This document shows, in pieces, positions 1,668 through 18,976 of a DNA stretch of 64,000 nt (the first letter of the stretch is position 1; each line of letters begins with the position of its first letter). Origin of the DNA: Planctomycetota bacterium (lineage in GTDB: Bacteria > Planctomycetota > UBA8108 > SXIK01); contig CBDCXR010000004.1 in assembly GCA_965223845.1 (NCBI GenBank), forward strand, positions 3,168,001 to 3,232,000, read 5' to 3'. A program made the position numbers and the translations under genes. The notes beneath the pieces are model-generated. The model made no database searches, had not been told where the DNA came from, and was given only the letters and a program-made list of their open reading frames with translations.

Positions 1668-4411
1668 CGTTCGGCCTCCAGCCAGACGTAGTCGAGGACG
1701 AGAGTCGCCGAACCCGCACGGATCTCGATCGGGACGATCGCCTCGGCGCCACGAGACGATGATCGGACGAGGATCGACACGAGCTCCGGAGAGTCCGCGC
1801 CGGAGCCTTGTTTCGCGACCACACCGAGGATGCCGTCGATCTCGATCGTCCCGTCGTCTCGCCGGACGATTTTCTCGTGAACAGCGAGGCGGAAGTGGAC
1901 CGTCCGCTCTTCCTCCCCGTACAGCGACAACGTGCGCCGGAGAAACGCGCGCCCTCCGGGTCCGTCGGCGATATCGACGGTCGAGTCGGAAATCGAGATG
2001 GTGCCGAATCGATAGAGAAAGCTAGGCCGCTGCCTCGCGCCGAGCTCGTATCCGCGAAACCGAATGTTACGTTCGCGGCTCGTCCCGCTCGGCCACGGGT
2101 CGTTTTCGTCGGCGAGCTCGGCCCACGCCGAGCCGCGCCCGAGCTCGACGCGATCGCGCGAGAGAACGCGTGCAGAACCGCTCCCCTGGCCGCGCCAGAC
2201 GCCGCTGGGATCGACGAACTTCCCGCGCCAAACTTGCTGCACGCTCGGACTCTCGGCGTCAAAGATCAAGTTGAGTCCAAGCGGATACCCGACGCTGATC
2301 GCACGCTTCCCGGCCCCTTGCGCCTTTCGGCGCAGCATCACCGCTTCGTCGCCGACGACGATCTCCATGGGCGGCCGACGAAGCCCACGCGGCGCGCGAG
2401 TGTTTCGTCCCTCGGCGAGGTACTCCCACATCGCGTGCAGCTGACGCTTCGGATCGCCGTCCGCGATGTCCGGAAACACCGACTCCCCCCCCGCGAAATA
2501 CTGCGGCATGATCGTGATCGAACGGAATCGCGGCGGGTCTAGCATGTAGTGGTAGAACCAATCTTTCCGAAGGCGCTGCGTCGTCGTTTCGACGAGATCG
2601 ATCGCGGCCATCGAGCCGCTCTGGATTCCGCGGAAGGTGTGACACGTGATGCAGCTCATCGCCTGCTCGCCGACAAGCTTGTGTCCGATGTCGGTGATGG
2701 CTCGCGCGCGCTTGCGATCCTTCGGTAGCGGCTCGAACTCGACCGCGGGCACGCGATCGAGCTCGGCGAAGAGATCCGCCAGCCCGTGAGTGTTCTCGGC
2801 CCCGAACGCAGGCATCCGCGTTCTCACGTAGGGGCGGAGCGTCTGACCGTGAGCGATCGTCTTGCGCAGCCACTCCTTTTCGAGCTTCGCGCCGACTCCC
2901 GTGAGCGGCGGCGGAACGCGGCCCGTCTCGCCGAGGTTCTCGTCTTCACTCGTGAAGAAATCGTTCCGTTCGGGCGAGATCCCGCCCCACTCGCCGCGCT
3001 CGTGGCACGCGATGCAGTTGAAGATCGCGAGCGTCGTTCGAGCCCGCTCTTCCGCGCTCGGTGGCGGAGATGTCCCCGCTAGGGCCGCGCGGAGATCGCC
3101 CACCTGCCGTTCGCTCAATGCGTAATCGGGCCAGCGCCCGAACTCTTGCGAGAGACATCCGCGCCCCGGGTCGAGCTCCGCGAGCGAACGTTCGTTCGGG
3201 CGCGCGTCGCCGAGCGCGTGGCACCGAGCACAACCGAGATCGCGATAGAGCGCGCCACCCGCTTTCGCCTTTGCGGAATCGACGACGAAGGGGACGGGCG
3301 ACGGCGCGAGTGTCGCCTCCGACCGCAGCATGGTCGCGGGGATCGGTCCTCGCTCGAGCCCCGGACCCGCGGCGCTCAGAGCGAGCCGCGGTGCGCCGCG
3401 GCGATGGAGAAAGAGAAGCTCCACCGGGTGAAGCCCCGCAGCGAGCTCAATCGTTGCCGAGCTCCTGCCGCCGCCTTCGACCTCGGCGACACGAGTCGAA
3501 TCGATCACGAAACGCGCGACCGCGCTACTCTCGAGCACGAACTCGTACTCCCCGTCGCGCTCGAGCTGAACGAAGCCATCGAATCGAACCGCGAAGTCAT
3601 CGCGATACGTCGAAAACTCAGCGAGGTCAAACCCTTGGGCGACTCCGGCCCGCGCTTCTCGGCCCTCGAGCGCGTCCAGGCCACCTTCGACGCCGAAGTA
3701 AAGCGTGTAGGCGAGGGGCGCGACCACACGCGACCGCGCGGTCAGATAGTGCGCGATGTCGTAGGCTTCGTTCGGTGTCAATCCTAGGTCGGGCATTCGG
3801 CTCGCGGGACGCGCGCGACGCGGCTCGGCAAGAAACGCCGTGAGGGTCGCCGGAGTGTACTTTTCTTCGAGTCGCCCGAGCGGCGCCGAGTCGGGAATAG
3901 AAACCTCCTCGCCGTCCTCGCTACGCGGATCGTGGCACGCGACGCAGCCGACAGAATGATAGAGAGCTCGCCCTCGCTCCGCGGCTACGTGATCGGGTGC
4001 GCCGGGACTCACCGGTGCCGGCACGAGCGACACGAGATAATGCGTGAGCGCCTCGGCGATCCGATCGCGTTCTTCCGGTGTCGACGCGCCCGGAGTTCCT
4101 TCTCCGAGCACGTTCGGCATCGTCGTCCCCGGCTTCGTCCGCTGCGGATTCGCGATGTACCCGCGAAGGTACTCGGGACGGAGCCGCGCTCCTACCGACG
4201 CGAGATCGAGGGCCTTCTTCCTCGGGGGAAACACGCCGCGCGGCCCCGGCGGATGACAGGACGTACAGCGGAGCTCTCCGAGGAGAACTGTCCCGCGGAG
4301 GCGTTCGTTGAGACCATCGCGCTCGAGTGCGGGGATGATCGGGTGGTCGGGAGCGGCAGTGAGAATACGAGTAGCGAGCAGGGTCGCAGCGAGGAAAAGA
4401 AGTCGGTGCAT
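1664..4411 (-). CDS. Secreted multiheme c-type cytochrome (5 CxxCH) with inserted PA14-like domain
   Basis: CTSCH, CVACH, CARCH, CIACH, CITCH motifs and several downstream MP motifs. PA14-like segment DDFAVRFDGFVQLERDGEYEF...LAAGLHPVEL. Start moved to MHRLLFLAATLL (signal peptide). Confidence 0.8.
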   Translation of the reverse strand: MHRLLFLAATLLATRILTAAPDHPIIPALERDGLNERLRGTVLLGELRCTSCHPPGPRGVFPPRKKALDLASVGARLRPEYLRGYIANPQRTKPGTTMPNVLGEGTPGASTPEERDRIAEALTHYLVSLVPAPVSPGAPDHVAAERGRALYHSVGCVACHDPRSEDGEEVSIPDSAPLGRLEEKYTPATLTAFLAEPRRARPASRMPDLGLTPNEAYDIAHYLTARSRVVAPLAYTLYFGVEGGLDALEGREARAGVAQGFDLAEFSTYRDDFAVRFDGFVQLERDGEYEFVLESSAVARFVIDSTRVAEVEGGGRSSATIELAAGLHPVELLFLHRRGAPRLALSAAGPGLERGPIPATMLRSEATLAPSPVPFVVDSAKAKAGGALYRDLGCARCHALGDARPNERSLAELDPGRGCLSQEFGRWPDYALSERQVGDLRAALAGTSPPPSAEERARTTLAIFNCIACHERGEWGGISPERNDFFTSEDENLGETGRVPPPLTGVGAKLEKEWLRKTIAHGQTLRPYVRTRMPAFGAENTHGLADLFAELDRVPAVEFEPLPKDRKRARAITDIGHKLVGEQAMSCITCHTFRGIQSGSMAAIDLVETTTQRLRKDWFYHYMLDPPRFRSITIMPQYFAGGESVFPDIADGDPKRQLHAMWEYLAEGRNTRAPRGLRRPPMEIVVGDEAVMLRRKAQGAGKRAISVGYPLGLNLIFDAESPSVQQVWRGKFVDPSGVWRGQGSGSARVLSRDRVELGRGSAWAELADENDPWPSGTSRERNIRFRGYELGARQRPSFLYRFGTISISDSTVDIADGPGGRAFLRRTLSLYGEEERTVHFRLAVHEKIVRRDDGTIEIDGILGVVAKQGSGADSPELVSILVRSSSRGAEAIVPIEIRAGSATLVLDYVWLEAER

Positions 4412-4698
4412 GAAGAGTTGGCGCAGTGACGGTCTCGTAGTTGCGGGATCTAAGTCTCCCCACATGGTGTCCCAACCGACTCGGGTGAACACGAAAAAAT
4501 GCCTGATCCACGATGGCGGAACTCCGCCTCCCGGCAGACGCGAGCTTGTGGTTTCTGCCCGTCGGCGTACGATGCCCGTCGTCGGTCGCCGAGGAGGTGT
4601 GTTCTCGAATCCCCTCGCCGGCCCGGCGATTCCCCGCCGGATTCATCTGGGCGGGTTCGCCTTCGGCACGATTCCACCTGTTCTCGACGGAGCACGCC

Positions 4699-6030
4699 AT
4701 GAACCGCCGCCAGTTCCTGAAGTCCGCAGCCGCTGCCGGAGCCGGTCTCACCATCCTTCCGAGCGGCGTTCTCTCCGGCGCGAACGCCCCGAGCAACAAG
4801 CTAAACGTCGCATTGATCGGCGTCTGGGGCCGTGGACGCGCGCACCGGCGAGCGATCTCGGGCGAAAACGTCGTCGCGCTCTGCGACATCAACGAGAAGC
4901 ATCTCGGTGACGCGAAAGAACACTTTCCGGGCGCGAAAACGTACGTCGATTGGCGGAAGTGTCTCGAGCAGAAAGACCTCGACGCGGTCGTTTGCTGCAC
5001 CACCGATCACACGCACGCGTTCGTCGCGAACTGGGCGATGCTCCGCGGCCTCCACGTCTACTGCGAAAAGCCGCTCGCGAACACCGTCGAGGAAGCACGC
5101 GTCGTCCGCGCGACCTACCTGAAGAACAGGAAGAAGCTCGCAACTCAGGTCGGCACGCAGCGGCACGCGCACGTCAACTTCAATCGCGTACGCGAACTCG
5201 TCCGCGACGGAGCGATCGGAGAGCTGAAGCGCGTGAGTGCGTGGGGAAACCGGAAGCTCCCGAAACCCGGCTACCTCCCGGCGATTTCCGGGAAGCCGCC
5301 GAAGCACCTCCACTACGACCTCTGGCTCGGGCCGGCGCCGTTCCATCCCTACAACCCGGGGTACTTCTCGGGCGGGCCCGGGGCGAATTGCCTCAACTGG
5401 AACATGTACTGGGACTTCGGGACCGGCCAAGTCGGAGACATGGGTAGTCACACCATGGATCTCGCGTGGAACGCGATCGATGCGCATCTCCCGACGTCGG
5501 CTGAGGCGACCGGAGACGAGTTCAATCCGGACGTCACTCCGGTGAAGCTCGAGGCGCACTTCGACCATCCCGCAAACGACTGGCGACCCGCGATTCGCGT
5601 GAGCTGGTACCAGGGCGGCGCCATGCCGAAGTCGCCGCGGAAGTACGTCGACCTGAATCGCATCGGGCACGGAGCTCTCTTCGAAGGATCGAGGGGCGCG
5701 CTCGTCGCGGACTTCCACTCGCGCATCCTGCTTCCGTCCGGAGACGACGCCGACATGCGCTACTACAAGAAGCGCCCCGACGACGAGCTCCTCGAGCCGA
5801 TCGGACCGTTCATGAAGGAATGGATCGACGCGGCCAAGGGCGACCTCCAGACGTCGTGCAACTTCGACTACGGCGGCGAGATGATCGAGCAGCTTCTCCT
5901 CGGTCTCGTCGCGTACCGAGTGGGCTCGAAGATCCAGTACGACGGCGAAAGCGGGCGTGTGACGAACAGCAGCGAAGGAAACGCTCTCCTCGCGCGCGAG
6001 TACCGAGAAGGCTGGAGTCTCGTCGGCTGA
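4699..6030 (+). CDS. Tat-exported Gfo/Idh/MocA family oxidoreductase
   Basis: MNRRQFLK twin-arginine signal with GGAG upstream, GVWGRG Rossmann motif, HVYCEKP, WDFGTGQVGDMGSH. Confidence 0.9.
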   Translation: MNRRQFLKSAAAAGAGLTILPSGVLSGANAPSNKLNVALIGVWGRGRAHRRAISGENVVALCDINEKHLGDAKEHFPGAKTYVDWRKCLEQKDLDAVVCCTTDHTHAFVANWAMLRGLHVYCEKPLANTVEEARVVRATYLKNRKKLATQVGTQRHAHVNFNRVRELVRDGAIGELKRVSAWGNRKLPKPGYLPAISGKPPKHLHYDLWLGPAPFHPYNPGYFSGGPGANCLNWNMYWDFGTGQVGDMGSHTMDLAWNAIDAHLPTSAEATGDEFNPDVTPVKLEAHFDHPANDWRPAIRVSWYQGGAMPKSPRKYVDLNRIGHGALFEGSRGALVADFHSRILLPSGDDADMRYYKKRPDDELLEPIGPFMKEWIDAAKGDLQTSCNFDYGGEMIEQLLLGLVAYRVGSKIQYDGESGRVTNSSEGNALLAREYREGWSLVG

Positions 6031-6144
6031 GTCATCGCGACCGTAACAATGCGGCGAACGCTTTGGCGAAACTGTGCCCGCACCGATTTCCTCCCGGTCG
6101 GTGCGGCGAGTAGGTGGTGCGGACCGTGACCGTCGAACCGGATT

Positions 6145-7746
6145 CTACGGACGCGCCGATACTCTCTCCCACAGCCGTCGACCCGCGACGTCGGGAGAGA
6201 GCCCGTCGACTTCGACCCACCGGTTCGCTTCGCGCATGGTGCGGGCGTCGATCCGATTCACGAGCTCGAGGAGCGCATTGACGAGCGCGACGTTCCCCGC
6301 CGCCCGCGGCGAAACGAGAACGATCGCGTCATACGGCGGGAAGATCCCGCGCGGATCCTCGAGAACGACGAAGTCGTACGCGTCGATGCGTCCGTCCGTC
6401 GAATACGCGGTGGCGACGTCGACCTGCCGATCGCGCACGGCGTCGTAGAGGAAGACTGCCTGCATCCCGACGGTTCCGATCCTCTCGAGGCCGTACGCGT
6501 CGCGGACGCGAGTCCACTCGGGTCGGCCGAACACTTCTGGATCTCCGCCGACCTTCAGCTCCGCCGCGTGAGGCGCGAGCTCCGCGATCGTCCTCACTCC
6601 GAGCTCCGCCGCTCGATCGCGGCGCATGACGAGGCTGTAGGCATTCTCGAAGCCGAGCGAGCCGACGCAGAGGACTCCGTGGGTCTCACGGAGGTACTTC
6701 GCGACCTCGATCTGAACGTCGAGACGCGACGCGGCGTCCTCGCGCTTCATGAGGGTCGCCCAAATCGTCCCCGAGTAGTCGACGTAGACGTCCACGGTGC
6801 TCTGCGCGAGCGCGTCGAAGAGAATCGTCGAACCCATGTTCGGACGGTTGTCCACCTCGGCACCGCGGGACTCGAGATGCGCTTCGAGCAGCTCGGCGAG
6901 GAGGTAACTCTCGGCGAAGGGCTTCGAACCCGTAACGATCCGAGTTCCCGCGAGTGTCTTCTCGGCGGAGACGGTATCGGAATCATCTCGAGCGGCGCGG
7001 TCGGCGACTCGCCCGTCGGGCGATCGCGCGGCGCCGAACGACGCGAGGCTCGGCCAGACGCCGATCACGAGGAGGACGCCGATCGCGACGAGAGCCGTCG
7101 ACACCAAACTCCGCCGTCGCGTTTCGAGTCCGCGCTCGAGCAGACGAATGAGTCCATCGAGGATCACCGCGAGGAGTGCGGCGCAGACGCACCCGAAGGT
7201 CGTCGCGACGTGGTTGCGCGTCTGCAGCCCGAGAAAAATGTACGTCCCGAGACCCTGCGCCCCGACGGCGGTCGCGAGCGTCGTCATGCCGACCACCCAC
7301 ACCGCCGCCGTGCGCACTCCCGCGACGATCACGGGCGCGGCGAGTGGCAATCGCACCTTGAGAAGTACTTGGCGCTCGGTCATTCCGAGTCCGCGCGCCG
7401 CCTCGACGAGCGTCGGATCCGTGCCGCTCACACCGGCGACGGTGTTTCGCAGCATCGGCAGAACGCTGTAGAGAACGAGAGCCACGAACGCGGGAAAGAA
7501 CCCGATCGTTCCACCGAGGATCGGCACCATGAGTGCGAGGAGCGCGAGGCTCGGGATCGTCTGGAGAATGCCCGCGATCGAGAGAGCGATGACGCGCCAG
7601 CGCGCGGAGCGAGCGCAAACGACACCGAGCGGGAGACTGATGCTCGCCCCCACTCCGAGCGAGCACACCGAGAGGAGGAGGTGGCCGCTGAGGAGCACGG
7701 GGAGCTCGTCGAACTGCTCGAGCACTCTCTGCACGATCTCGTTCAC
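6145..7746 (-). CDS. Fused ABC permease / substrate-binding protein, glycine-betaine/choline/ergothioneine (OpuBD-ProX, EgtU-like) family
   Basis: N-terminal TMs with QTIPSLALL and EAARGLGM loop. C-terminal SBP with GSKPFAES, YSGT, GFENAY, AYSTDG, FPPYDA. Confidence 0.9.
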   Translation of the reverse strand: MNEIVQRVLEQFDELPVLLSGHLLLSVCSLGVGASISLPLGVVCARSARWRVIALSIAGILQTIPSLALLALMVPILGGTIGFFPAFVALVLYSVLPMLRNTVAGVSGTDPTLVEAARGLGMTERQVLLKVRLPLAAPVIVAGVRTAAVWVVGMTTLATAVGAQGLGTYIFLGLQTRNHVATTFGCVCAALLAVILDGLIRLLERGLETRRRSLVSTALVAIGVLLVIGVWPSLASFGAARSPDGRVADRAARDDSDTVSAEKTLAGTRIVTGSKPFAESYLLAELLEAHLESRGAEVDNRPNMGSTILFDALAQSTVDVYVDYSGTIWATLMKREDAASRLDVQIEVAKYLRETHGVLCVGSLGFENAYSLVMRRDRAAELGVRTIAELAPHAAELKVGGDPEVFGRPEWTRVRDAYGLERIGTVGMQAVFLYDAVRDRQVDVATAYSTDGRIDAYDFVVLEDPRGIFPPYDAIVLVSPRAAGNVALVNALLELVNRIDARTMREANRWVEVDGLSPDVAGRRLWERVSARP

Positions 7747-8540
7747 GCGTTTTCGCTGCCTCCGCCGGACGCGGATTCCGACAATCGATCGACGTCGCGA
7801 GCCTGCCGCTTCGGTGTCGCGAGAAGGCGCTCCACGTACGCCTCGGCCGGTCGGTGAAGAATCTCCCGGGGAGTTCCGGTTTGCAGGAGACGGCCCGCGC
7901 GCATCACCGCGATGCGATCGGCGAGGAGGAGCGCCTCCGTCATGTCGTGAGTCACGAGCACGGCGGTGAGGGACAGTCGACTCTGGAGCGCCTTGAACTC
8001 CTGCTGGAGCTCGTCCCGCGTCACCGGGTCGAGCGCGCCGAACGGCTCATCGAGAAGGACGACGCTGGGACTTCCCGCGAGCGCGCGGGCGAATCCGACT
8101 CGCTGCTTCTCGCCGCCGGAGAGTTCTCTCACGCTGCGCGCGCCGTACTTCGCTGGATCGAGCTTCACGAGCTCGAGGAGCTCGCGGACGCGATCCTCGG
8201 CCTGGGCGCTCGTCCAGCGCTTGAGATCCGGAACGATGCGAACATTCTCGCGGACGGTGAGATGGGGGAACAAGCCCGCGCCCTGAATCACCCAACCGAT
8301 CGAGCGCCGGAGCTCGACGGCGTCGCGCTCGCACACGTTCGCGCCGGCCACGCGCACCACGCCTCGGTCCGGCTCGACGAGCCGGTTGATCATTTTGAGA
8401 ATGGTCGTCTTTCCCGAGCCGGACTCCCCGAGAATCGCGACGAGCTCACCGCGCTGGACGCTCAAGCTGACATCGTCCACCGCGAAGGAACGACCGCCGT
8501 CGAAGGACTTCGTCACTCGTTCGACGGTGATCTCGGCCAT
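7743..8540 (-). CDS. ABC transporter ATP-binding protein (OpuA/ProV/EgtV-like)
   Basis: Walker A GESGSGKT, LKMINRL, signature LSGGEKQR, Walker B LLDEPFGALD, VTHD. Confidence 0.92.
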   Translation of the reverse strand: MAEITVERVTKSFDGGRSFAVDDVSLSVQRGELVAILGESGSGKTTILKMINRLVEPDRGVVRVAGANVCERDAVELRRSIGWVIQGAGLFPHLTVRENVRIVPDLKRWTSAQAEDRVRELLELVKLDPAKYGARSVRELSGGEKQRVGFARALAGSPSVVLLDEPFGALDPVTRDELQQEFKALQSRLSLTAVLVTHDMTEALLLADRIAVMRAGRLLQTGTPREILHRPAEAYVERLLATPKRQARDVDRLSESASGGGSENA

Positions 8541-8552
8541 CGGCCCTCTAGC

Positions 8553-9836
8553 TCAGACGTCTCGCGCGAGACGGATCCCGCTGAATTGCCACCGCGCGGC
8601 GGCCGGGAAAAAATTGCGATACGTGGCGCGGAGATGAGATTGCGGCGATCCGCACGAACCGCCGCGAAGGACGAACTGATTGCACATGAACTTGCCGTTG
8701 TACTCGCCGAGCGCTCCCTCGGCGGGAGCGTATCCGGGATAAGCCGTATACGGACTCCCAGTCCATTCCCACAGATCGCCGAAGAGCGAGCTCGGGCGGG
8801 AGGGATCGCGCTTCGGGCTCGCCGGAAGCGGATGGAGCGCGCGCGACTCGAGAAAGTTCCCGTCGACCGGCACCGGAGCCGCGACGATCTCCCACTCGTC
8901 CTCCCGCGGAAGGCGGGCTCCCGCCCACCGCGCGTACGCGTCGGCTTCGTAGAAGCTGACATGGCAGACCGGCTCATCGCATCGGAGCGGTCGCTCTCCC
9001 GCGAGCGTGAAAACGTGCCAGCCGCCGATCGCATCGCGATTCCAGTAGAGCGGATGGCGCCACCCTTCCGACTGCACCGTCGCCCACCCGTCCGAGAGCC
9101 AGTGTCGAGCGTCTTCGTAACCACCGGCTTCGACGAACTCGAGGTACTCGCCGCACGTCACGAGTCGATCGGCCATGCGGAAGGGGTGGACGTGCCGGCG
9201 ATGCCGCGGCGACTCGTTGTCGTAGCCGAAGCCGTCTCCGTCGTCGCGGCCGATCTCCGCGTTTCCGCCGGGATGCTCGAGCCACCGGATCCCCCCGACG
9301 GGGGCCGCGACATCACCGGCTCGATCTTCGCGATACGCAGGCCGGAGCGGATTCAGCGACAAGAGATGCTTCACGTCGGTGAGGATCAGCTCCTGGTGCT
9401 GCTGCTCGTGGTGAAAACCGAGCTCGACGCGGGCGGCGACGTCACTCGCTCGCTCGTGGTCGGGCAAGCGTTCGAAGAACTGGAGGAGAGCGCGATCGAC
9501 GTGATGACGATAGTCGAGTACCTCCGCGAGCGACGGCCGTGTCATGAGGCCGCGCTGAGGTCGAGGAATCCGCTCTCCGACCGTTTCGTAGTACGAATTA
9601 AAAAGGAGATCGGTGCTCGCGTCCCAGCGCTCATAGCCATCGCAGAGCTCGAGCAGCACGAACGTCTCGAAGAACCACGTCGTGTGCGCGAGATGCCACT
9701 TCACCGGACTCGCGCACTCCATCGACTGCGCTTGGCAGTCTTCGGGACCGAGCGGCGACGCGAGCGCCTCCGTCTCCTCGCGTACGTGACGGTACGCGCT
9801 CTCGACCGAGGTGGTGACCGCCGAAGAAACGATCAT
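8553..9836 (-). CDS. egtB: Ergothioneine biosynthesis sulfoxide synthase EgtB (NSYY-type)
   Basis: DinB-like N-terminus with SPVKWHLAHTTWFFE and HHEQQHQELILTD iron-binding His motifs, FNSYY, and an FGE-sulfatase-like C-terminus ending RNFF...RWQFSGIRLA. Confidence 0.93.
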   Translation of the reverse strand: MIVSSAVTTSVESAYRHVREETEALASPLGPEDCQAQSMECASPVKWHLAHTTWFFETFVLLELCDGYERWDASTDLLFNSYYETVGERIPRPQRGLMTRPSLAEVLDYRHHVDRALLQFFERLPDHERASDVAARVELGFHHEQQHQELILTDVKHLLSLNPLRPAYREDRAGDVAAPVGGIRWLEHPGGNAEIGRDDGDGFGYDNESPRHRRHVHPFRMADRLVTCGEYLEFVEAGGYEDARHWLSDGWATVQSEGWRHPLYWNRDAIGGWHVFTLAGERPLRCDEPVCHVSFYEADAYARWAGARLPREDEWEIVAAPVPVDGNFLESRALHPLPASPKRDPSRPSSLFGDLWEWTGSPYTAYPGYAPAEGALGEYNGKFMCNQFVLRGGSCGSPQSHLRATYRNFFPAAARWQFSGIRLARDV

Positions 9837-10834
9837 CCCGTGCTCTCCGCAGCTCCGTCGACCTCGAAATAACGGACGCTGAATAGGTCATCCTCGTCGC
9901 ACCACGTCTCCACTTCGCGGAGTCCGGCCCGCGCCGCGAGCTTTGCGAACCTCCGGTGCGAGTACTTGTGAGAGTATTCCGTGATCACGTATTCCCCCCG
10001 CTCGATCGAAAAGTCTTCCTTCGCGACCCGGATCGACTGATCGCAGCGACTGACGAGACGCATCTCGATGCGCTCTGCCTCGTGGTCGTACACCGCGCGG
10101 TGCTCGAAGCGATCTTCGTCGATGTCGGCGCCGAGCTCGCGATTGAGGACTCGCAGGATGTTCTTATTGAATCGAGCCGTGACTCCGGCAGAGTCATTGT
10201 AGGCGGCCGAGATCACGTCCGGGCATTTGACGAGATCGACGCCGACGAGAACACCGCCGTCATCGCCCGCGACGTCCGCCAGATTTCGGAGAATCTGCTC
10301 GGCTTCTTCTTCTTCGAAGTTGCCGATGGTCGATCCGGGAAAGAACGCGACCCGGCGGCGCGTTTCCGGGGGAAGTTCCGGGATGTCGATCGCGCCGGTG
10401 AAATCGCCTTCCACGGGAACGACTTCGAGCTCGGGATAGCTCTCCTGAAGATCGCTTGCAGCACTTTCGAGGTGAGTTCCCGAGACGTCGATCGGCACAA
10501 AGCAAGCGACTTCGTCGAGAGCGTCGAGGAGGTAGCGCACCTTGACGCAGGAGCCCGCCCCCGGCTCGATCAGCGCCGCTCCCGGTCCGATGCGGTCCGC
10601 AATCTCTCCGGCGTTCGTGCGCAGGATCTCCGATTCGGCATCGGGGATGTAGTACTCGGGGAGATCGCAGATCTCGTCGAACAGCTTCGAACCGGTTTCG
10701 TCATAGAAGAGCTTCGACGGGAGTCGCTTCGGTTCGGAAGAGAGACCGTCCATCACTTCTTGAGCCGTTTCACGACAATCCCTGTCCGACTCGCCTAGGT
10801 CGAGTTCGACTCCATCGCTTCGCTTACTACGCAT
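9833..10834 (-). CDS. egtD: L-histidine N-alpha-methyltransferase EgtD
   Basis: KRLPSKLFYDETGSKLFDEICDLPEYY, IEPGAGS, FFPGSTIGNF, AYNDSAGVTARFNKNIL, TEYSHKY. Overlaps egtB by 4 bp. Confidence 0.95.
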   Translation of the reverse strand: MRSKRSDGVELDLGESDRDCRETAQEVMDGLSSEPKRLPSKLFYDETGSKLFDEICDLPEYYIPDAESEILRTNAGEIADRIGPGAALIEPGAGSCVKVRYLLDALDEVACFVPIDVSGTHLESAASDLQESYPELEVVPVEGDFTGAIDIPELPPETRRRVAFFPGSTIGNFEEEEAEQILRNLADVAGDDGGVLVGVDLVKCPDVISAAYNDSAGVTARFNKNILRVLNRELGADIDEDRFEHRAVYDHEAERIEMRLVSRCDQSIRVAKEDFSIERGEYVITEYSHKYSHRRFAKLAARAGLREVETWCDEDDLFSVRYFEVDGAAESTG

Positions 10835-10929
10835 CGATCCGGCCTTCCTGGAAAGAAATGTAAACTGAGTCCAACACTGCCCCTCGGTACCTCGAGTTCA
10901 AACGGCGTCGCAGCGGTAGCACGGGACCG

Positions 10930-12036
10930 TCAGAACGAAATGGATTCCTCGAACCTGACGAGTGCCTCGGGGAAGCCGTAGTGCCCGAACCCGATCCGGA
11001 CGTGGTCGTCCGGCGCCTCGAAAAGCGGCGACGGCAGCGCCATGACGCCCGACCGGGCGAGCGCGCGGTCGCAGAGCGCGCTCGCGCTCTCCCCGAGAAC
11101 TCGGGCGAAGCCGACGGTCCCCGCCGCGGGTGCAGTCCACGAAAACTGGGTGGAGCGTCGCGACAGGAACGCCTCGAACCTCTCGACATTTTTCCCGACG
11201 AGCTCGCGGCGCTCGGGGAGGATCGCGCCGTGAGCTCGGAGCGCGATCGCGCCGAGGAGCTCACAGACCGGCGACGACACCGCGGACGTCGCGCAGCGGA
11301 GACGACGGACTCTCTGAACGAACTCGCGATCGCGCGACACGATCCAACCGAGTCGAATTCCAGCGAGACCGAACGTCTTCGATAGGCTAGAGACGACGAC
11401 CCCGCGTTCGTCGGCGTCGACCACCGACGGCAGCCGCGGACATCCCGCGGGCTCGATTCCACGAAACACCTCGTCGCAAAAGACGCGCACACGACGAGCT
11501 CTCGCCGCGTCGAGGATCGCCGCGAACTCGTCCTCGGACGGCACCCAGCCCGTCGGGTTGTGTGGAATGTTGAGAATGAGGAGGCGAGTTTCGTGACGAA
11601 ACAACGGTTCGAGGCCCCCCGCCGTCCAGCTCCACTCCACCCCGCCGTCGGGCATCCATTCGGAAACTTCGCACCCGATCGCCGACGCCCACGCGCTCAG
11701 CGGCGCGTACCGAGGGGTCGAGACGATCGCGTGGTCGCCGGGCCGAACCGCGGCCAGATTCGCGAGCATCAGCGCTTCGCTTCCCGGAACGACGACCACA
11801 TCGTTCTCGCTCACCGAGTCGTAGAGCGCCGCGACTTCCGCGCGCAGCTCCTCACCGCCGCGCGCGTCGCCGTATCCGAGCGACAAGGACGCGAATCGCT
11901 CCCGATCGTCCGGTGTCCCGAGCGCTAGCAACGCTTCGAGACCCAGCGATTCACACTCCGAACTCGAGATCGAGTGGGAGAATTCCGTGCCTTCGTCGAA
12001 GAAGCGTTCAGCGATGTGGTGCCGCGGAAGATCCAT
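10930..12036 (-). CDS. Class I/II (fold type I) PLP-dependent enzyme, aminotransferase-like
   Basis: GYGDARG, NIPHNPTG, DEVF, PLP-lysine motif SSLSKTFGLAGIRLGW, C-terminal VRIGFG. Start moved to MDLPRHH. Confidence 0.88.
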   Translation of the reverse strand: MDLPRHHIAERFFDEGTEFSHSISSSECESLGLEALLALGTPDDRERFASLSLGYGDARGGEELRAEVAALYDSVSENDVVVVPGSEALMLANLAAVRPGDHAIVSTPRYAPLSAWASAIGCEVSEWMPDGGVEWSWTAGGLEPLFRHETRLLILNIPHNPTGWVPSEDEFAAILDAARARRVRVFCDEVFRGIEPAGCPRLPSVVDADERGVVVSSLSKTFGLAGIRLGWIVSRDREFVQRVRRLRCATSAVSSPVCELLGAIALRAHGAILPERRELVGKNVERFEAFLSRRSTQFSWTAPAAGTVGFARVLGESASALCDRALARSGVMALPSPLFEAPDDHVRIGFGHYGFPEALVRFEESISF

Positions 12037-12297
12037 GAGGCCCGTCGATCGAAACGAAGTCGGACGTCGCAGCGCGATCGCCGAAACGCGCAGCCACGCC
12101 GACGTGGATCCGCCTCTTGTACGCGGTTTCGCCCTACGATTCCACCCGCGAAGCAGATCGCCGGGAGAACTCCCGCTTGCGGCCGTCCGCGGACAATCGA
12201 GACGCTCATTGAAATCCCGCCGGATCGTGAGCACCATGGCAGTCTCGCGTACGTAGACCTCGATTCCTGACCAGCGGATGCCGATGGAGGGTAGGCG

Positions 12298-12756
12298 ATG
12301 CGGAACGAAGGCAGCATCGAGATCGACCGTCCGATCGCGGAAGTGTTCGAGTACACGAACCACAACGTCGCCGACTGGAGCCTCGTCGTCGTCGAAGACG
12401 AGGGAGTCAAGCAGACACCCGAGGGCGTCGGTTCGACCTTCCGCATTGTCACCGAGGACCGCGGACGGAGGATGGAGTTCGAGGGCGTCGTAACGAAGTG
12501 GGATCCCCCGCGTGCCTCGACGGTTTTGATGCGAAACGCGCAGTTCGACATAGAAGCGGCTTACCGGTTCGAGGAGCTCTCACGAGACCAAACGCGCGTC
12601 ACGCAGACCGCGAACGTCACGGCGAAAGGCTTCATGAAGATCATGATGTTCTGCCTCGGTTGGCTCGGGAAGAAGTCGAGCTGCCGCGCGCAGGAGAACG
12701 AGCTCGCGAATCTGAAGCGTCTCCTCGAAGAGAGGGCGAGCGCGACGGCGGAGTGA
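12298..12756 (+). CDS. SRPBCC/START-like family protein
   Basis: SIEIDRPIAEVFEY N-terminus, GVGSTF, WDPP, and C-terminal helix ELANLKRLLE. GGAGGG upstream. Confidence 0.8.
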   Translation: MRNEGSIEIDRPIAEVFEYTNHNVADWSLVVVEDEGVKQTPEGVGSTFRIVTEDRGRRMEFEGVVTKWDPPRASTVLMRNAQFDIEAAYRFEELSRDQTRVTQTANVTAKGFMKIMMFCLGWLGKKSSCRAQENELANLKRLLEERASATAE

Positions 12757-12828
12757 CCGGATCGTCGGCCCGACGTCGACGAACGCGCCACCGAAGCCGC
12801 GTCTGAAAGGATCAACGAGATACCGCGG

Positions 12829-13746
12829 ATGTCGAGCGCCGAATCGTCCCGGGAGTTTTCGCTCCGCGGCATCGTCCCCCCTCTCGTCACGCCGCTCGCC
12901 GAACGCGATCGCATCGACGAGCCCGGCGCCACTCGACTCCTCGAGCACGTCATCGCGGGCGGTGTCACGGGAGTTTTCGTGCTCGGGACGACCGGTGAGG
13001 CGCCGAGCCTCAGCTACCGGCTGAGGCGCGAGTTCATCGAGCTCGTTTGCGCGACCGTCGGCGGACGGATCCCCGTCGTCGTCGGGGTGACGGACACCGC
13101 GTTTGTGGAGTCGATTCGGCTCGCGGGAATCGCGCACGACGCCGGAGCGAGCGCCGTCGTCCTCTCGACGCCCTACTATTTCCCCGCCGGCCAAACAGAG
13201 CTCCTTCACTACGTAAACCGCATCGCGGCCGAGCTACCGCTTCCACTCATCCTCTACAACATGCCGAGCCTCACGAAGGTGTGGTTCGAGATCGACTCGC
13301 TGCGCGAGCTCGCCGCGCTCGATTCGATCGTCGGCATCAAAGACAGCAGCGGCGATCTCGCGTACTTCGAGAGGCTCACCGCGCTCAAAGAGCTCCGGCC
13401 GGATTGGGAGATCCTCATCGGGCCCGAGCACCTCCTCGTCGAGTCGCTCTCTCTCGAGGGTGACGGCGGCGTTCACGGTGGAGCGAACATCTTCCCCGAG
13501 CTCTTCGTCGAGCTCTACCGCGCGGCAGTCGACGGCGACGCGTCGCGCTGTCGCGAGCTACAGGGAAAAGTCGGAGAACTGCAAGCGATCTACTCGATCG
13601 GCAAGTACGCGAGCCGCTTCATCAAGGCGACGAAGTGTGCGCTTTCGCTCAAGGGTATTTGCAGCGACCACATGGCGGAGCCGTTCGATCACTTTCTGCC
13701 GCCGGAGCGAGCGCGGGTGGCGACGATTCTCGAGCGACTTGCTTAA
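12829..13746 (+). CDS. Dihydrodipicolinate synthase (DapA/NanA) family aldolase/dehydratase
   Basis: [19 protein letters not shown], Schiff-base GIKDSSGD. Confidence 0.88.
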
Positions 13747-14064: not shown

Positions 14065-15537
14065 CTAACGCCGCGGCCTCACCGCCGGAGGATGCGCCGC
14101 GAGCTTCGCGCGCAGCTCCGCCATCACCTCAGGCCGTACGCCGGCGAGGTTCTTCGTCTCGAGCGGATCGTCCTCGTAGTCGTAGAGTTCGTATTCGATT
14201 TCGGCGCTTCCGTCCCACGTCTTCCACTCGACGAGTCGATAGCGCTGCGTTCGGATCGCGCGGCCGAGCCGATTCCTTCCGCGCGGATAGCAGTGGTAGA
14301 CGTGATCGCGTACGCTCTGGGTAGGATCCTTCAGGATCGAGACCAGGCTTCGGCCATCGATGGGCTGCGTACCTTTCGGCACTGGCAGTCCCGCGAGCCC
14401 CGCGAGCGTCGGATACAGGTCGACCGACTCGACGAGTGCGCGAGTGCTCGTCCCGGCCTTCGTGACGCCGGGAGCGACGACGAGGATCGGGATGCGATTC
14501 GCCTCCTCGTAGTTCGTGTGCTTCGTCCAGGCGCCGTGGTCGCCGAGGTGATAGCCATGATCGCCCCAGAGAACGACGACGGTGTTCTCTGTGAGCTCGA
14601 GGCGGTCGAGAGCATCGAGCACGCGACCGACCTGAGCGTCCATGTAGCTGAGCGACGCGTAATACCCATGAATCAGCGTCCGCGTGAGCTCCTCAGTGAG
14701 CGGAGGTCTCGCGGGCACCGGTTTGTATTGGTTGAGCTCGCCGAGTGTCTTCCCCGCGTAGGGCGGTGCACCCTGGGGTGGACGCGTGAACTTCGCGAGC
14801 GGCAGCGACTCCGGCGAGTAGAGCTTCCAGTACTTTTCCGGCGCACAGAATGGAAGGTGCGGCTTCGTGAATCCCAGCGCGAGAAAGAACCGCGTCCCCG
14901 ACTGTTTGTATTTCTCAAGCCGGCGGATTCCCTCCGACGCGATGCGTCCGTCGGCGTACGCGTCATCGGAGACGCCGGCGCGTTCCCACGCCGCTCCGCG
15001 GGGGAGTCCTCGCGCCGGCCGATTGCTGAAGAGGGCTTCTTCGCGCGTCAGCTCTCCGTCCGTGCTCTCGGGGAGGACGTAGTCGATCACCTTGTCCGGC
15101 TGAAACGGGACGCTCCACGAATGTTCGTCGTTCACGTTCCCGTGCCCGATGTGAAACACCTTGCCGATTCCGGCGGCGTGGTAGCCGTGCCTCTTGAAGA
15201 GCTGAGGCAGCGTAACCGTATCCGGCACGGCTCGACGGAAGTGGTAGCCGAGGCTGTACACCCCGGTCGAGGTCGACCGCGAGGACGTCAAAAGATGATT
15301 CCGCGACGGCGCGCACACCGCTTGGTTGCAGTAAGCGGCATCGAAGCGCAGCCCGCGGGCGGCGAGACGATCGAGGTTCGGCGAGTGCACCCACGCCTCA
15401 CCGTACGCTCCGAACGACGGTTTCAGATCGTCGACGAGGAGGAGAAGGACGTTCGGACGCGCGCTTTCCGATGCCGGAGCCGCAGTGCACGTTCCGACGA
15501 CGAGCAGGAATACGATCAGAAGCTTCATTCCAGCCAT
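14065..15537 (-). CDS. Sulfatase (iduronate-2-sulfatase/choline-sulfatase-like)
   Basis: PNVLLLLVDDL, CAPSR formylglycine motif, GKVFH, KPHLPF, WGDHGYHLG. Signal peptide and GAAGGA upstream of the chosen start. Confidence 0.92.
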   Translation of the reverse strand: MAGMKLLIVFLLVVGTCTAAPASESARPNVLLLLVDDLKPSFGAYGEAWVHSPNLDRLAARGLRFDAAYCNQAVCAPSRNHLLTSSRSTSTGVYSLGYHFRRAVPDTVTLPQLFKRHGYHAAGIGKVFHIGHGNVNDEHSWSVPFQPDKVIDYVLPESTDGELTREEALFSNRPARGLPRGAAWERAGVSDDAYADGRIASEGIRRLEKYKQSGTRFFLALGFTKPHLPFCAPEKYWKLYSPESLPLAKFTRPPQGAPPYAGKTLGELNQYKPVPARPPLTEELTRTLIHGYYASLSYMDAQVGRVLDALDRLELTENTVVVLWGDHGYHLGDHGAWTKHTNYEEANRIPILVVAPGVTKAGTSTRALVESVDLYPTLAGLAGLPVPKGTQPIDGRSLVSILKDPTQSVRDHVYHCYPRGRNRLGRAIRTQRYRLVEWKTWDGSAEIEYELYDYEDDPLETKNLAGVRPEVMAELRAKLAAHPPAVRPRR

Positions 15538-15739
15538 TCGCGTTCCTTCAACGGATCGACAGTATTCTCGCGACCGAGTTTGGACGAGCGAGACAAATCT
15601 CGGCGCCGGCTTCCCCCGATCCGCGGCCAAAGCGGCTATCATGGGCGGCCGTGTCGACCGGTACGATGTCAGGACGCCGCCGCGGCTCCGTGTTCCATCG
15701 AGTCGACGCCACTCCTTTCGCTCTCGCTGGACCGCTACC

Positions 15740-17317
15740 ATGAGAATAACGACCTTCTTAGCCGTTTTCGCCGCGACCCTAGGCGGCGCGCCCGTCTCCG
15801 CTCAGACCGAACGCGGTCCGGATGCCGCCGGCAGTCGACCGAACATCGTCTTCATGCTCTCCGACGACATGGGCTGGGCGCAGCCGGGATTCAACGGCGG
15901 AAACAAAGAGCTGACGCCGAACATCGATCGACTCGCGACCGAAGGACTGCGTCTCACTCAGTTCTACACCCACTCGGTGTGCGCGCCGACGCGCGGGGCG
16001 TTTCTCACCGGGCGCTACGCGTTCCGCAACTGGATGGACTGGCGCTCCGAGGACTTCGGAAAGCCGAGCTATCTGAACGCACTCGGTCTCACGCTCGCGA
16101 TCAACGACGACGGCGTCCCCACGCGGCGCATCCACGCGCTCGACACGAGCGAGCGCACGATCGCCGAGGCGCTGAGCGAAGCCGGATACTTCACCGCGAT
16201 CGTCGGGAAGTGGCACTGCGGCGAGTGGCTCCCGGAGCACCTCCCGATGGCGCAGGGCTTTCAACACCAGTACGGCCACTACGCCTGGGGGATCGACTAC
16301 TACAACTTCACGATTCCCCACAACGCCCCGGCGCGGTTTGCCGTCTACGATTGGCATCGGAACCAGAAACCGCTCCAGGAAGACGGATACGCGACGGATC
16401 TTTTCGCCGCCGAAGCGGAACGGGTGATCGCGCGACAATCGAAGGAGCGCCCCTTCTTCCTCTACGTACCCTTCAACGCGGTTCACGGCCCGATCAACAA
16501 GGTGCCGCGCTACACGGACAAGTACGACGCGCGGAGCGCCGCGCTCAAGTGCCTCGACGATGCCGTCGGACGGATCCTCGGCGCGATCGACGAGCACGGC
16601 TTCCGCGACTCGACGCTCGTCGTCTTTACGAACGACAACGGCGGTCTCTTCGAGGAGATGAGCCGGCCCTACCGCGGGACGAAGAACACCACCTTCGAAG
16701 GCGGCGTGCGCGTCCCCTGCATCCTCCGGTGGCCCGGCCGCACGAAGCCCGGAAGCGTAAACGACGGGATGATGTTCATTGCGGACTTCTTCTCGACGTT
16801 GATTACGCTCGCCGGCGGCAAGCACGAACAGAAGCTCCCGGTCGACGCGCTCGACATGACGGGGCTGCTCTTTGGCGGGAAGGCGACGCCGCGCACGGAG
16901 ATCGTCTTCGAAGTCGCGGGAAGCGTCCGCCTCCCGACGATCCGGAGCGGCGACTACAAGCTCATGGGCGACATGCTCTTCAACGTGAGAGAGGATCCCA
17001 GCGAGCGAACCGACCTCGCCGCGCAGAGACCCGATGTCGTGAAGCGACTCCGCGCGCGTCTCGACGCCGTGGGAAAGGAGCGCCCGCCGCTCGGGGACAA
17101 GCCGCTCCTCATGGACCCGCCACTCCCCTACATCTACGGGCTCGAGGAGAACAAGAACGTGCCCGCGTGGCTGAAAACCGCGGTCGAAAAGGTCCGCGCG
17201 ACTCAGCCTAAGTCATGGCCGCCCGGAGAAACGCCGTGGCCCCAGGCCCCGAAGGGGGCGTTCGCATCGAAGCAGCCGAAGTCCGAGCTGCCTCCCGATC
17301 GCGGAAAGAGCGAGTAG
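15740..17317 (+). CDS. Arylsulfatase family protein
   Basis: Signal peptide MRITTFLAVF, PNIVFMLSDDMG, CAPTR, GKWHCG, DNGG, EGGVRVP. Confidence 0.92.
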   Translation: MRITTFLAVFAATLGGAPVSAQTERGPDAAGSRPNIVFMLSDDMGWAQPGFNGGNKELTPNIDRLATEGLRLTQFYTHSVCAPTRGAFLTGRYAFRNWMDWRSEDFGKPSYLNALGLTLAINDDGVPTRRIHALDTSERTIAEALSEAGYFTAIVGKWHCGEWLPEHLPMAQGFQHQYGHYAWGIDYYNFTIPHNAPARFAVYDWHRNQKPLQEDGYATDLFAAEAERVIARQSKERPFFLYVPFNAVHGPINKVPRYTDKYDARSAALKCLDDAVGRILGAIDEHGFRDSTLVVFTNDNGGLFEEMSRPYRGTKNTTFEGGVRVPCILRWPGRTKPGSVNDGMMFIADFFSTLITLAGGKHEQKLPVDALDMTGLLFGGKATPRTEIVFEVAGSVRLPTIRSGDYKLMGDMLFNVREDPSERTDLAAQRPDVVKRLRARLDAVGKERPPLGDKPLLMDPPLPYIYGLEENKNVPAWLKTAVEKVRATQPKSWPPGETPWPQAPKGAFASKQPKSELPPDRGKSE

Positions 17318-17360
17318 CCGCGGAGTCGCGCCAGATTCGAGGATCGAATCGATCCGCTCG

Positions 17361-17395
17361 CTTCCTCTCCCTTTACGCTCTCTTCGTGCGAAGCT
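17361..17395. repeat. Degenerate repeat family A copy
   Basis: CTTCCTCTCCCTTTACGCTCTCTTCGTGCGAAGCT resembles the right arm of family A and sits between convergent sulfatase genes. Confidence 0.4.
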
Positions 17396-17416
17396 CTTCT
17401 CTCAAGGACGAAATCA

Positions 17417-18976
17417 CTAGCTACCGAAGCGCGGCGCCGAATGCCCCTGCTCCCGAATCCGTTCGAGGAGCGCGCGCATTTCCGCAACTCGCTTCGGATG
17501 TTCGGCGGCCACGTTCTTCCGCTGCGCGATGTCCTCGGCGAGGTTGTAGAGCTCAACCGGCGCGTCGTCATCGGGTGCGTACTCCCGTTTCGCCTCCCAC
17601 GCCTTGTCGCGCGCGGACACGTAACCGTTCTTCGCGAGGATCAAGAGCCAGTCGCCGCTTCGCACCGCGAAGTTCTTATTGTGCGCGCAGTGGATGTAGT
17701 TCGTCCTCGCGCCTTTTTCCTCGCCCTTCAAGATCGAGAGAACGCTGTGCGAATCCTCGGCCGCGTCTCGCGGGAGCTCGAAGCCGAGCACCTCGGCGAA
17801 TGTCGCCATGAGATCGATCTGCGAGACGAGCGCGCTCGAGGTCGAACCGGGCTTGACGACGCCCGGCCACCTGACGATGAAGGGGACGTGATGCCCGCCC
17901 TCGTAGAGATCGCGCTTCAGCCCGCGAAACGGAGCGGCCGACCAATGGTCGAAGTTCCTGTCACGCGGGTAGGCGTACCGCTCGGGACCGTTGTCGGCCG
18001 TGAAGACGACGATCGTGTTCTTCGCCTGGCCGGTCTCCTCAAGCGCGTCGAGGATCCGGCCCGAGGCGTGGTCGGTTTCGTAGACGAAGTCACCGTAAGC
18101 CCCCGCCTTCGACTTTCCGTCGAACTCGTCGTTGGGGATGATCGGTGCGTGCGGTGAGGGAAAAGCGAAGTAGAGAAAGAACGGACTCTTCGTATCTTTC
18201 TGCGCTCGAATGTACTCGACCGCGCGCTTCGTCGTTGTCGGGATGTTCTCGTAGGGATCCCAATCCGAGATCATCGGCCCGGGGCGACACTCCCAGTTTC
18301 CCTCCTTGATCTTCTTCCACTTCGAAGTGTCCATGAGCGTGTCCGGCGCCTTCACCACGCGGTCGTTCTCGATCCAACAGTAGGGCGGAAAGTTGATCAC
18401 GGTGTCGCCAAAGTAGTGGTCGAAGCCGTGCGCGAGCGGGCCGTCGGGGATCGACTTCGACCAATCGAACGCCTCGGGGCCGAACGATCGGCGCCGTCCC
18501 TTCGAAATCGGCTTCGCGTCGGGCTTCTTGATCGCGTCCCAGTTCCACCCGAGGTGCCACTTCCCGATCGCAGCGGTCGCATAGCCGCGCTCCTTCAGCA
18601 TTTCGGGAAGCGTGAGGCGCTCGGGAGCGAACACCGACTTTCCGAAGACACCGACGATTCCGTGAAAGTCGCGCCAGTGGTGGCGCCCGGTGAGGAGCGC
18701 GTAGCGACTCGGGCTACAGATGCTCGCCGACGAGTGACCGTCGGTGAAGCGCAGCCCTTCGCTCGCGAGTCGATCGATGCGAGGAGTCGAAATCTTCGAC
18801 TTCGGATTCTGGCTGCTCAGATCGCCGTAGCCGAGGTCGTCGGCGTAGAGGATGAGGATATTGGGGGGAGTTCGGTTCCCCGGTCGAGGCTCCTCGACGG
18901 CGCTGACTTTCGTCTCCGCGAAGACGACACCCGAGAGGACGACGAGAAAGAGGTAACTCGATGGGAGCATTCGCAT
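17417..18976 (-). CDS. Arylsulfatase A-like sulfatase
   Basis: [37 protein letters not shown], signal peptide. Confidence 0.93.

Follow-up and report, generated by a model that had tools for sequence, protein, structure and literature searches.

We examined a 64,000-nucleotide (nt) stretch of a Planctomycetota genome (assembly GCA_965223845.1, contig CBDCXR010000004.1, positions 3,168,001 to 3,232,000), hereafter the window, in which genes for ergothioneine synthesis lie beside a gene for a pyridoxal 5'-phosphate (PLP) enzyme that we call P0003. This contig is 7.87 Mb long and belongs to a genome of 7.93 Mb, which is assembled in 4 contigs and is 91.7% complete. Five minus-strand genes follow one another consecutively, encoding the PLP enzyme, the methyltransferase EgtD, the sulfoxide synthase EgtB and the two components of an ATP-binding cassette (ABC) importer. 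An earlier note on this DNA proposed that the PLP enzyme may be an unrecognised hercynylcysteine-sulfoxide lyase, which would complete a three-enzyme ergothioneine pathway. Here we weigh that proposal together with a related branch of the same PLP family that is encoded beside OvoA. The features at the locus are the following (protein lengths in amino acids, aa).

10930..12036, minus strand: P0003, class I/II fold-type-I PLP enzyme, 368 aa (PF00155, 133.8 bits)
10835..10929, minus strand: spacer between the PLP gene and egtD, 95 nt, read directly
9833..10834, minus strand: EgtD, histidine N-alpha-trimethyltransferase, 333 aa (TIGR03438, 377.2 bits, cut-off 290.9; PF10017, 360.5 bits)
8553..9836, minus strand: EgtB, type II (Chloracidobacterium-like) sulfoxide synthase, 427 aa (TIGR03440, 554.1 bits, cut-off 360)
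7743..8540, minus strand: ABC transporter ATPase, ProV/OpuA-like (PF00005, 125.6 bits; TIGR01186 proV, 274.6 bits, below cut-off)
6145..7746, minus strand: permease with a fused substrate-binding domain of the betaine type, cluster F-III (BPD_transp_1 and OpuAC domains)
12298-12756, opposite strand, upstream of the PLP gene: SRPBCC protein
12829-13746, opposite strand, upstream of the PLP gene: DHDPS-family aldolase

The PLP gene is intact and, as had been noted, lies 95 bp upstream of egtD on the same strand. egtD and egtB overlap by 4 nt, egtB and the ATPase gene are separated by 12 nt, and the ATPase and permease-fusion genes again overlap by 4 nt. The P0003 gene starts with the ATG at 12036, and homologs are 366-375 aa long. 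A longer reading frame from GTG-12363 was rejected, as it would overlap the divergent gene at 12298-12756 and exceed the length of the homologs. The spacer carries an AGGAAGG stretch ahead of the egtD ATG. In a scan of 5900-13000 the spacer gave no site resembling a consensus promoter or terminator, although such a scan is uninformative for the promoters of this organism. The PLP gene and egtD may be co-transcribed.

A short ergothioneine operon with one step unassigned

EgtB combines DinB_2 (PF12867) and FGE-sulfatase (PF03781) domains. Its translation contains LLFNSYYETVG, in which N80-S81-Y82-Y83 is encoded by 9599-9588, so that the FNSYY tyrosine pair reported at 9588-9599 is exact. The protein scores 473 bits against the EgtB structures of Chloracidobacterium thermophilum (8QF6/6QKI/6O6L), compared with 115 bits for the gamma-glutamylcysteine-type Mycobacterium EgtB 4X8B, and its FNSYYE aligns residue for residue with the C. 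thermophilum structures. In C. thermophilum EgtB the two adjacent tyrosines are catalytically important (PMC10696552), and type II EgtB takes cysteine as its substrate and does not need EgtC (PMC11993508, citing Stampfli 2019 and Kamide 2020). From this similarity and the absence of EgtA and EgtC we infer, in agreement with the earlier note, that the window EgtB, a type II enzyme, uses free cysteine as sulfur donor. The FGE-sulfatase part of the EgtB model has 22 matches in the genome.

The absence of egtA, egtC and egtE, first remarked for the window, extends to the whole genome at its 91.7% completeness: EgtA and EgtC gave 0 matches each, and the best score of the EgtE model, 83.6 bits against a cut-off of 400, belongs to a SufS-type desulfurase. 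Given a type II EgtB and no EgtA, EgtC or EgtE in the genome, C-S cleavage is the only step without a gene. The locus is best read as a short ergothioneine operon, probably dependent on cysteine.

P0003 is a divergent member of a GntC/VioD-like family

P0003 is not an EgtE-type enzyme: it matches PF00155 and no class V family, and EgtE is absent from the NCBIfam matches listed. Those matches are led by GntC (195.8 bits, cut-off 415), VioD (185.9 bits, cut-off 391) and PRK07324 (183.5 bits), all below their cut-offs. The best sequence matches in the PDB are 8FFT (GntC, 123 bits) and 3OP7 (122 bits), a Streptococcus suis structure of unassigned function. The AlphaFold model, with a predicted local distance difference test (pLDDT) score of 93.6, finds its best folds in GntC 8FFT (template modelling score 0.89-0.93), 3OP7 and OrfR. 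After these come aminotransferases, and no C-S lyase is among the matches listed down to rank 49. Judged by these scores, P0003 is a divergent orphan member of a 3OP7/PRK07324/GntC/VioD-like PLP family and the equivalog of none of GntC, VioD and PRK07324. Its nearest characterised relatives, VioD/OrfR and GntC, catalyse eliminations rather than transaminations (PMC10367076).

The family comprises 504 representatives at an E of 1e-30 or better, and P0003 is its sole member in this genome (1 match). Lys220, Asp188, Asn160 and Arg347 fall in invariant family columns, and all 22 invariant columns are kept, yet among 30 aligned members P0003 diverges furthest, 18 of 72 conserved columns being altered. 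Its nearest homolog among 1.84 billion representatives is 40-41% identical. The 80 best family loci in species-representative genomes come mostly from Chloroflexota and Actinomycetes, with others in Asgard archaea and Candidate Phyla Radiation (CPR) bacteria, and they include anaerobes. Some members are fused to GNAT (P0051), ACT (P0164, P0173) or PAH (P0144) domains, and P0043, P0045 and P0075 carry extensions of 260-300 residues that lack a Pfam match; none of these fusions and extensions has a link to EgtD or EgtB.

A branch of the family is paired with OvoA

In one genome of the same order, G014, which lacks egtD, the sole family member (371 aa, 36-37% identical to P0003) is encoded directly after the gene for a 763-aa OvoA, with the junction TGAcATG (L164:1135-4543; G014:C32). 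The identity of this OvoA is clear from TIGR04344 (710 bits, cut-off 400) and from the ovoA_Cterm methyltransferase model (347 bits, cut-off 170). The PLP gene therefore occupies the position that OvoB has after ovoA. A metagenome scan with the G014 PLP protein returned 24 loci. At 7 of them (L177, L181, L185, L186, L188, L192 and L194) an OvoA gene (59-74% identical) immediately precedes the PLP gene in the same orientation, less than 100 nt away. Six of these are among the 17 loci with at least 400 bp of upstream sequence, and at the seventh only the end of the OvoA gene is visible, at the contig start.

When 89 family members were placed in a tree, a single clade of 23 rows took in all 8 OvoA-linked proteins. 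Its support is 98 by the Shimodaira-Hasegawa-like approximate likelihood ratio test (SH-aLRT) in a quick tree and 99/99 (ultrafast bootstrap/SH-aLRT) in a careful tree, the bootstrap of which was not yet fully stable. Five proteins have 2 kb or more of upstream DNA free of OvoA, and all of them lie outside the clade. One long-branched clade member, L198, has no OvoA within its 431 bp of upstream sequence.

The G014 protein matches the OvoB structure 5Z0Q at 47.5 bits, compared with 187 bits for 3OP7 and 134 for GntC. On these scores the clade is not canonical OvoB; it is probably a second, non-orthologous type of OvoB. At 12 other OvoA loci of the phylum no class I/II PLP neighbour was found, including L166, whose OvoA is 71% identical; L170 has two weak class V matches. 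The pairing of ovoA with a PLP gene is thus specific to the clade and not universal. The literature that we searched held no description of the clade; the list of OvoB-like accessions supplementing PMC8433421 was not part of it. It is the firmer part of our findings and apparently undescribed.

P0003 as a candidate hercynylcysteine-sulfoxide lyase

That P0003 is a lineage-specific hercynylcysteine-sulfoxide lyase is plausible, and we place it just short of an even chance; this and the grades given to other readings are our own judgement and come from no tool. EgtD would trimethylate histidine to hercynine, and type II EgtB would convert hercynine, free cysteine and O2 to hercynylcysteine sulfoxide. 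P0003 would then cleave the cysteine C-S bond by beta-elimination, through an external aldimine on Lys220, with release of pyruvate and ammonia, and the sulfenic acid left behind would be reduced to ergothioneine. The downstream ABC importer would take up a quaternary-ammonium solute, probably ergothioneine or hercynine. P0003 would in this case have been recruited, in this lineage only, from the 3OP7/GntC/VioD-like family, and a different branch of the family would independently have become the partner of OvoA. For both branches lyase activity is a prediction. We lean somewhat against the broader statement, while taking it seriously, that the family holds a second kind of thiohistidine-cysteine sulfoxide beta-lyase recruited at least twice, once as an OvoA partner replacing OvoB and once, independently, for the terminal egt step here, in a self-contained operon of three enzymes with a betaine-type importer of its own.

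Arguing for a lyase role, the gene lies on the same strand as egtD with a gap of 95 nt, and the sole missing step of the pathway needs PLP chemistry. A further indication comes from the residues that distinguish the OvoA-linked clade. Discriminating positions were defined without P0003, as those at which the consensus is held by at least 60% of 279 non-clade members and by at most 15% of 29 clade members. The resulting 15 positions include D27, T56, E57, Q111, S112, Y191, D248 and S258. Clade members depart from consensus at 11-15 of the 15, and only 18 of the 279 outsiders (6.5%) do so at 10 or more. P0003 is non-consensus at 10 of the 15 discriminating positions, a larger share than the 43 of 125 at conserved positions elsewhere (Fisher p 0.023), and shares the clade residues Pro112 and Phe191. 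Each of the 23 named clade rows has Phe or His at position 191, three residues beyond the Asp that binds PLP. Several discriminating positions adjoin GntC active-site residues in the alignment (PMC10367076), in which S25, N52*, K219 and H250* of GntC correspond to S26, Y55, K220 and A252 of P0003. We interpret the sequence shift in P0003 to indicate a specificity outside the family mainstream; by itself it does not show lyase activity.

A first form of the signature test, in which P0003 and the G014 protein share 10 deviations in 69 conserved columns (hypergeometric p 2e-4), was set aside because other divergent members overlap equally (P0056 9/13, P0050 7/14). Six 'key' positions were rejected because they had been chosen from the shared set, which is circular.

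P0003 and the OvoA-linked clade are alike in belonging to one family and in being encoded beside the gene of a non-heme-iron sulfoxide synthase, and both have Tyr191 replaced (by Phe or His in the clade) and the consensus lost at 27, 56, 57, 111, 112, 248 and 258. They differ in that the clade is a separate branch which pairs with OvoA and lies downstream of it by less than 100 nt at 8 loci, whereas the context of P0003 is unique, and the residues that replace the consensus in the clade are mostly unlike those of P0003.

Evidence against a dedicated role

Other evidence weighs against the lyase assignment. In phylogenetic terms, P0003 lies outside the OvoA-linked clade: the careful tree places it with the orphans P0042 and P0050 in another set of 27 rows (support 96/98), and forcing it into the clade costs 56.4 log-likelihood units (p 0.025 in the approximately unbiased (AU) test). 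An AU test on the quick tree, in which the constrained tree was 15.6 log-likelihood units better, was an artefact of a poor free search and was reversed by the careful tree. P0003 has no ortholog, the best identity being 39% among 38 scored matches from a collection of 5.8 billion proteins. Nor is it of the PatB/MalY/OvoB type. It reaches 64.1 bits with TIGR04350 (PatB C-S lyase), far from the cut-off of 340, and only 33.3 and 32.1 bits against the PatB and cystalysin structures (6QP3 and 1C7N), and OvoB 5Z0Q is outside its best 60 PDB matches. At position D+3 P0003 has Phe, not His; the D204...H207 motif of OvoB 5Z0Q is of the MalY/cystalysin kind.

Genomic context points the same way. The link to egtBD was seen in one genome only, and the 95-nt spacer stands apart from the 4-nt overlaps and 12-nt gap inside egtD-egtB-ATPase-permease. 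Among 40 relatives, 2 have a P0003 homolog (E <=1e-20; 36% and 27% identical), and none of the 3 genomes of the same family has one. One of that family, G003, has egtD, egtB and the transporter but no P0003 homolog.

Co-occurrence of this PLP lineage beside egtBD, to which the earlier note had looked for confirmation, was seen at none of the other loci compared. Seen from the PLP family, egtD lies within about 8 kb of a family member at none of the 80 best family loci, and beside one at none of 9 further loci in the phylum and order and none of the 24 metagenome loci. A supposed EgtB near a family member at one of the 80 loci (L031) is a plain 344-aa FGE-sulfatase protein that lacks the DinB domain and was not counted. 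Clustering the flanking open reading frames of the 80 loci revealed no conserved neighbour, the largest cluster being generic ABC ATPases at 14 loci.

Seen from egtD, we compared 49 other loci with about 7 kb on each side: 40 chosen by hand from 90 matches in the phylum, with contigs that left room for flanks favoured, 4 from relatives and 5 from genomes holding both genes. Neighbours were screened by tblastn (E <=1e-8, at least 100 residues, best query per region shown) for PLP families other than class III, DegT, beta-eliminating lyase (PF01212) and fold types II-V. A P0003-like gene was present at 0 of the 49 loci, and another class I/II PLP gene also at 0. The NSYY type of EgtB, recognised by (F/L)NSYY, occurs at 24 of the first 44 loci, after one spurious motif match with stop codons had been dropped, and at 23 of these 24 the flanks of about 7 kb hold no PLP gene of the families screened.

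In a 400-genome sample of the phylum, egtD is present in 90 genomes, a family homolog (E <=1e-25) in 22 and both in 7. This is no enrichment (odds ratio 1.66, p 0.30), kin among the genomes not being independent, and in none of the 7 do egtD and the homolog share a contig. In 5 of the 7 egtD contigs and three of the PLP contigs that were inspected, the two genes were not adjacent. Two of the egtD contigs measure only 2951 and 5480 bp, and a link may lie beyond their ends.

Lastly, a dedicated lyase is dispensable. E. coli finishes thiohistidine dipeptides without a cluster-encoded lyase, with CsdA active in vitro (PMC13674229); yeast with Egt1 alone produces ergothioneine (PMC7437059); and PLP by itself is able to cleave the sulfoxide (PMC4728180, citing Seebeck 2010). 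According to these sources, borrowed lyases or free PLP would suffice. The present genome has a SufS/CsdA-like enzyme, two IscS/NifS-like enzymes, five PF01053 (Cys/Met-metabolism) and 12 PF00155 proteins, among them candidate generic lyases. A borrowed lyase is the norm among NSYY-type loci, all but one of the 24 being without a PLP gene of the families screened close by. The earlier statement that a PLP C-S lyase is still needed thus stands as regards the step, the only one without a gene, but not as regards a dedicated enzyme.

Class V genes occur beside egtD elsewhere. Of the 24 NSYY-type loci, only L145 has a candidate for a dedicated lyase, a class V gene right after egtB-egtD (L145:8008-9120, plus strand; G209:C1) that scores 148.6 bits with the EgtE model and 189.7 with the SufS model, both below cut-off. 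Class V matches beside egtD at loci lacking EgtB were seen at L123, L126 and L130. At L126 the neighbour of egtD (L126:6895-8007) encodes a 1145-aa protein (8121-11558, minus strand) in which a molybdopterin oxidoreductase is fused to a class V cysteine desulfurase, and no EgtB is nearby. This fusion is the metallopterin-dependent ergothioneine synthase described in PMC9516567, not a lyase, so an oxygen-independent route is also present in the phylum. At L148:5593-6748 (minus strand) the EgtB match is broken into two tblastn pieces, 6748-6368 and 6372-5593, whose frames differ, which could be a frameshift or an assembly error.

Alternative explanations

The most serious alternative is that P0003 is an accessory amino-acid enzyme that happens to abut a mobile egtD-egtB-ATPase-permease module, the sulfoxide being cleaved by housekeeping PLP enzymes of the SufS/CsdA-like or cystathionine lyase-like kind or by free PLP. 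We regard this as a strong contender, if appreciably short of even. The module occurs without the PLP gene in all 4 relatives that have egtD, and the transporter recurs at 10 of the 49 other egtD loci, a class I/II PLP gene at none. The NSYY-type loci without a PLP gene agree with it, as does EgtE, which exceeds its cut-off in 0 of the 401 genomes of the phylum sample. So do the generic lyases of the genome, the published borrowed or non-enzymatic cleavage, and a family that has no conserved neighbour in 80 loci and is found in anaerobes, Asgard archaea and CPR bacteria. A chance estimate is also compatible. Taking 12 PF00155, 5 PF01053 and 4 class V genes and assuming 6000-6500 genes, the chance that a fold-type-I PLP gene flanks a given module is 0.7-1.4%, and that of at least one such adjacency across the 45 egtD loci first compared is 0.25-0.47. 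Taken by itself, the adjacency of the PLP gene and egtD could therefore be due to chance. Counter to this, a chance neighbour requires three coincidences: that the genome's single member of a family with an OvoA-partner clade abuts egtD, that P0003 is among the 6.5% most shifted at the clade positions, and that its gene has the orientation of egtD and ends 95 nt before it. For the lyase itself, the OvoA-partner clade and the active-site shift speak in favour of the earlier proposal. The homologs, which lie beside egtBD at none of the loci compared, speak against it, and the earlier note had named such an outcome as a refutation.

Two further explanations carry much less weight. P0003 could partner the divergent SRPBCC (12298-12756) and DHDPS-aldolase (12829-13746) genes, for example by transaminating or cyclising a hydroxy-keto or amino acid derived from the aldolase. 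The PLP gene and these two genes have a common 261-nt divergent intergenic region, and the closest characterised relatives act on hydroxylated amino acids (PMC10367076). However, a DHDPS or SRPBCC neighbour recurs at none of the 80 family loci, no arginine hydroxylase is nearby, and the GntC pocket residues N52 and H250 are replaced by Y55 and A252, so we hold this to be improbable. Less probable again, to the point of being far-fetched, is a gene drifting under relaxed constraint with no specific role. Its divergence from the other 29 aligned members, with a quarter of the conserved columns changed (18/72), and its lack of an ortholog would fit such drift. Yet the frame is intact and none of the 22 invariant columns has changed, those of the Lys, Asp and Arg among them, the model is of high confidence, the GC content at third codon positions is 0.76, similar to that of the neighbours, and the changes are concentrated at specificity positions rather than evenly spread.

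Relation to known systems

If P0003 is a hercynylcysteine-sulfoxide lyase, it would resemble EgtE of mycobacteria and Egt2 of fungi in fold type I and in the proposed PLP-dependent beta-elimination on hercynylcysteine sulfoxide. It would differ in class, these being class V (PF00266) and P0003 class I/II (PF00155). The earlier note had taken the canonical lyases to be class V. This is true of EgtE and Egt2, but a class I/II enzyme that cleaves a thiohistidine-cysteine sulfoxide, OvoB of Erwinia tasmaniensis (5Z0Q), is already known (PMC8433421). Class I/II enzymes are thus capable of this cleavage, although OvoB belongs to another subfamily and is not in the best 60 PDB matches of P0003.

The hydroxy-arginine cyclodehydratases GntC and VioD/OrfR and the Streptococcus suis protein 3OP7 are the best matches in sequence and fold, with elimination chemistry as a further likeness. 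Against an equivalence, the scores are below cut-off, pocket residues differ and no hydroxylase partner is nearby in the window. The short pathway of Chloracidobacterium thermophilum and of Methylobacterium egtBD likewise consists of EgtD and a cysteine-using EgtB, with no EgtA or EgtC (PMC11993508). There the lyase is EgtE-type or unassigned; here there is a GntC/VioD-like candidate and an ABC importer in the operon. The three-enzyme pathway is in this respect not new, since the egtD plus type II egtB route is already known. What would be new is a GntC/VioD-like enzyme as a thiohistidine-sulfoxide lyase, with P0003 a candidate second instance in addition to the ovoA-linked clade.

Were the lyase assignment true, the locus would provide a compact, self-sufficient route of EgtD, type II EgtB and lyase that is useful for ergothioneine production. 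No fewer than three unrelated PLP lineages would then have taken on the C-S cleavage of thiohistidine pathways: EgtE/Egt2 of class V, the MalY-like OvoB and a GntC/VioD-like lineage. Should P0003 be a chance neighbour, this is an ordinary egtBD locus with borrowed lyases. Independent of the window, the ovoA-PLP operons offer a testable candidate for a second OvoB type and a first functional lead for a large PLP family with almost no assigned functions.

The ABC importer and other features

The conserved module is egtD-egtB with a betaine-type ABC importer. The ten other loci where the ATPase and permease/binding-domain fusion are linked to egtD and/or egtB span at least seven GTDB families and are L021-L024, L114, L120, L124, L125, L153 and L155, with both orders of permease and binding domain. 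The importer resembles the ergothioneine importer EgtUV in having an ATPase and a permease fused to a cluster F-III betaine-binding domain (PMC9732360). The window binding domain (6148-6969), which is of the aromatic-cage cluster type, is nearer to the glycine-betaine protein ProX than to EgtUC: it matches A. fulgidus ProX at 172 bits, 8DP6 at 101 and EgtUC at 94. It has DYSGT where SpEgtUC has EFTGT, and it lacks the Y-to-F switch of the high-affinity pneumococcal EgtU (PMC9732360). The predicted substrate is a quaternary-ammonium solute, which may be ergothioneine, hercynine or another betaine. Neither the literature searched nor the available part of the EgtU paper (PMC9732360) mentions a linkage of egtD or egtB with the importer.

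Outside the operon, the window (1664-4492, minus strand) and the relative G007 (L022:2148-5174, minus strand) each have a gene for a large cytochrome c plus PA14 protein at a distance of a few kb from the egt genes, which may be a remnant of shared synteny. Three sulfatase genes occupy 14065-18976 of the window (14065-15741, 15485-17317 and 17417-18976). The frames at 14065-15741 and 15485-17317 overlap on opposite strands, and one of them may not be real.

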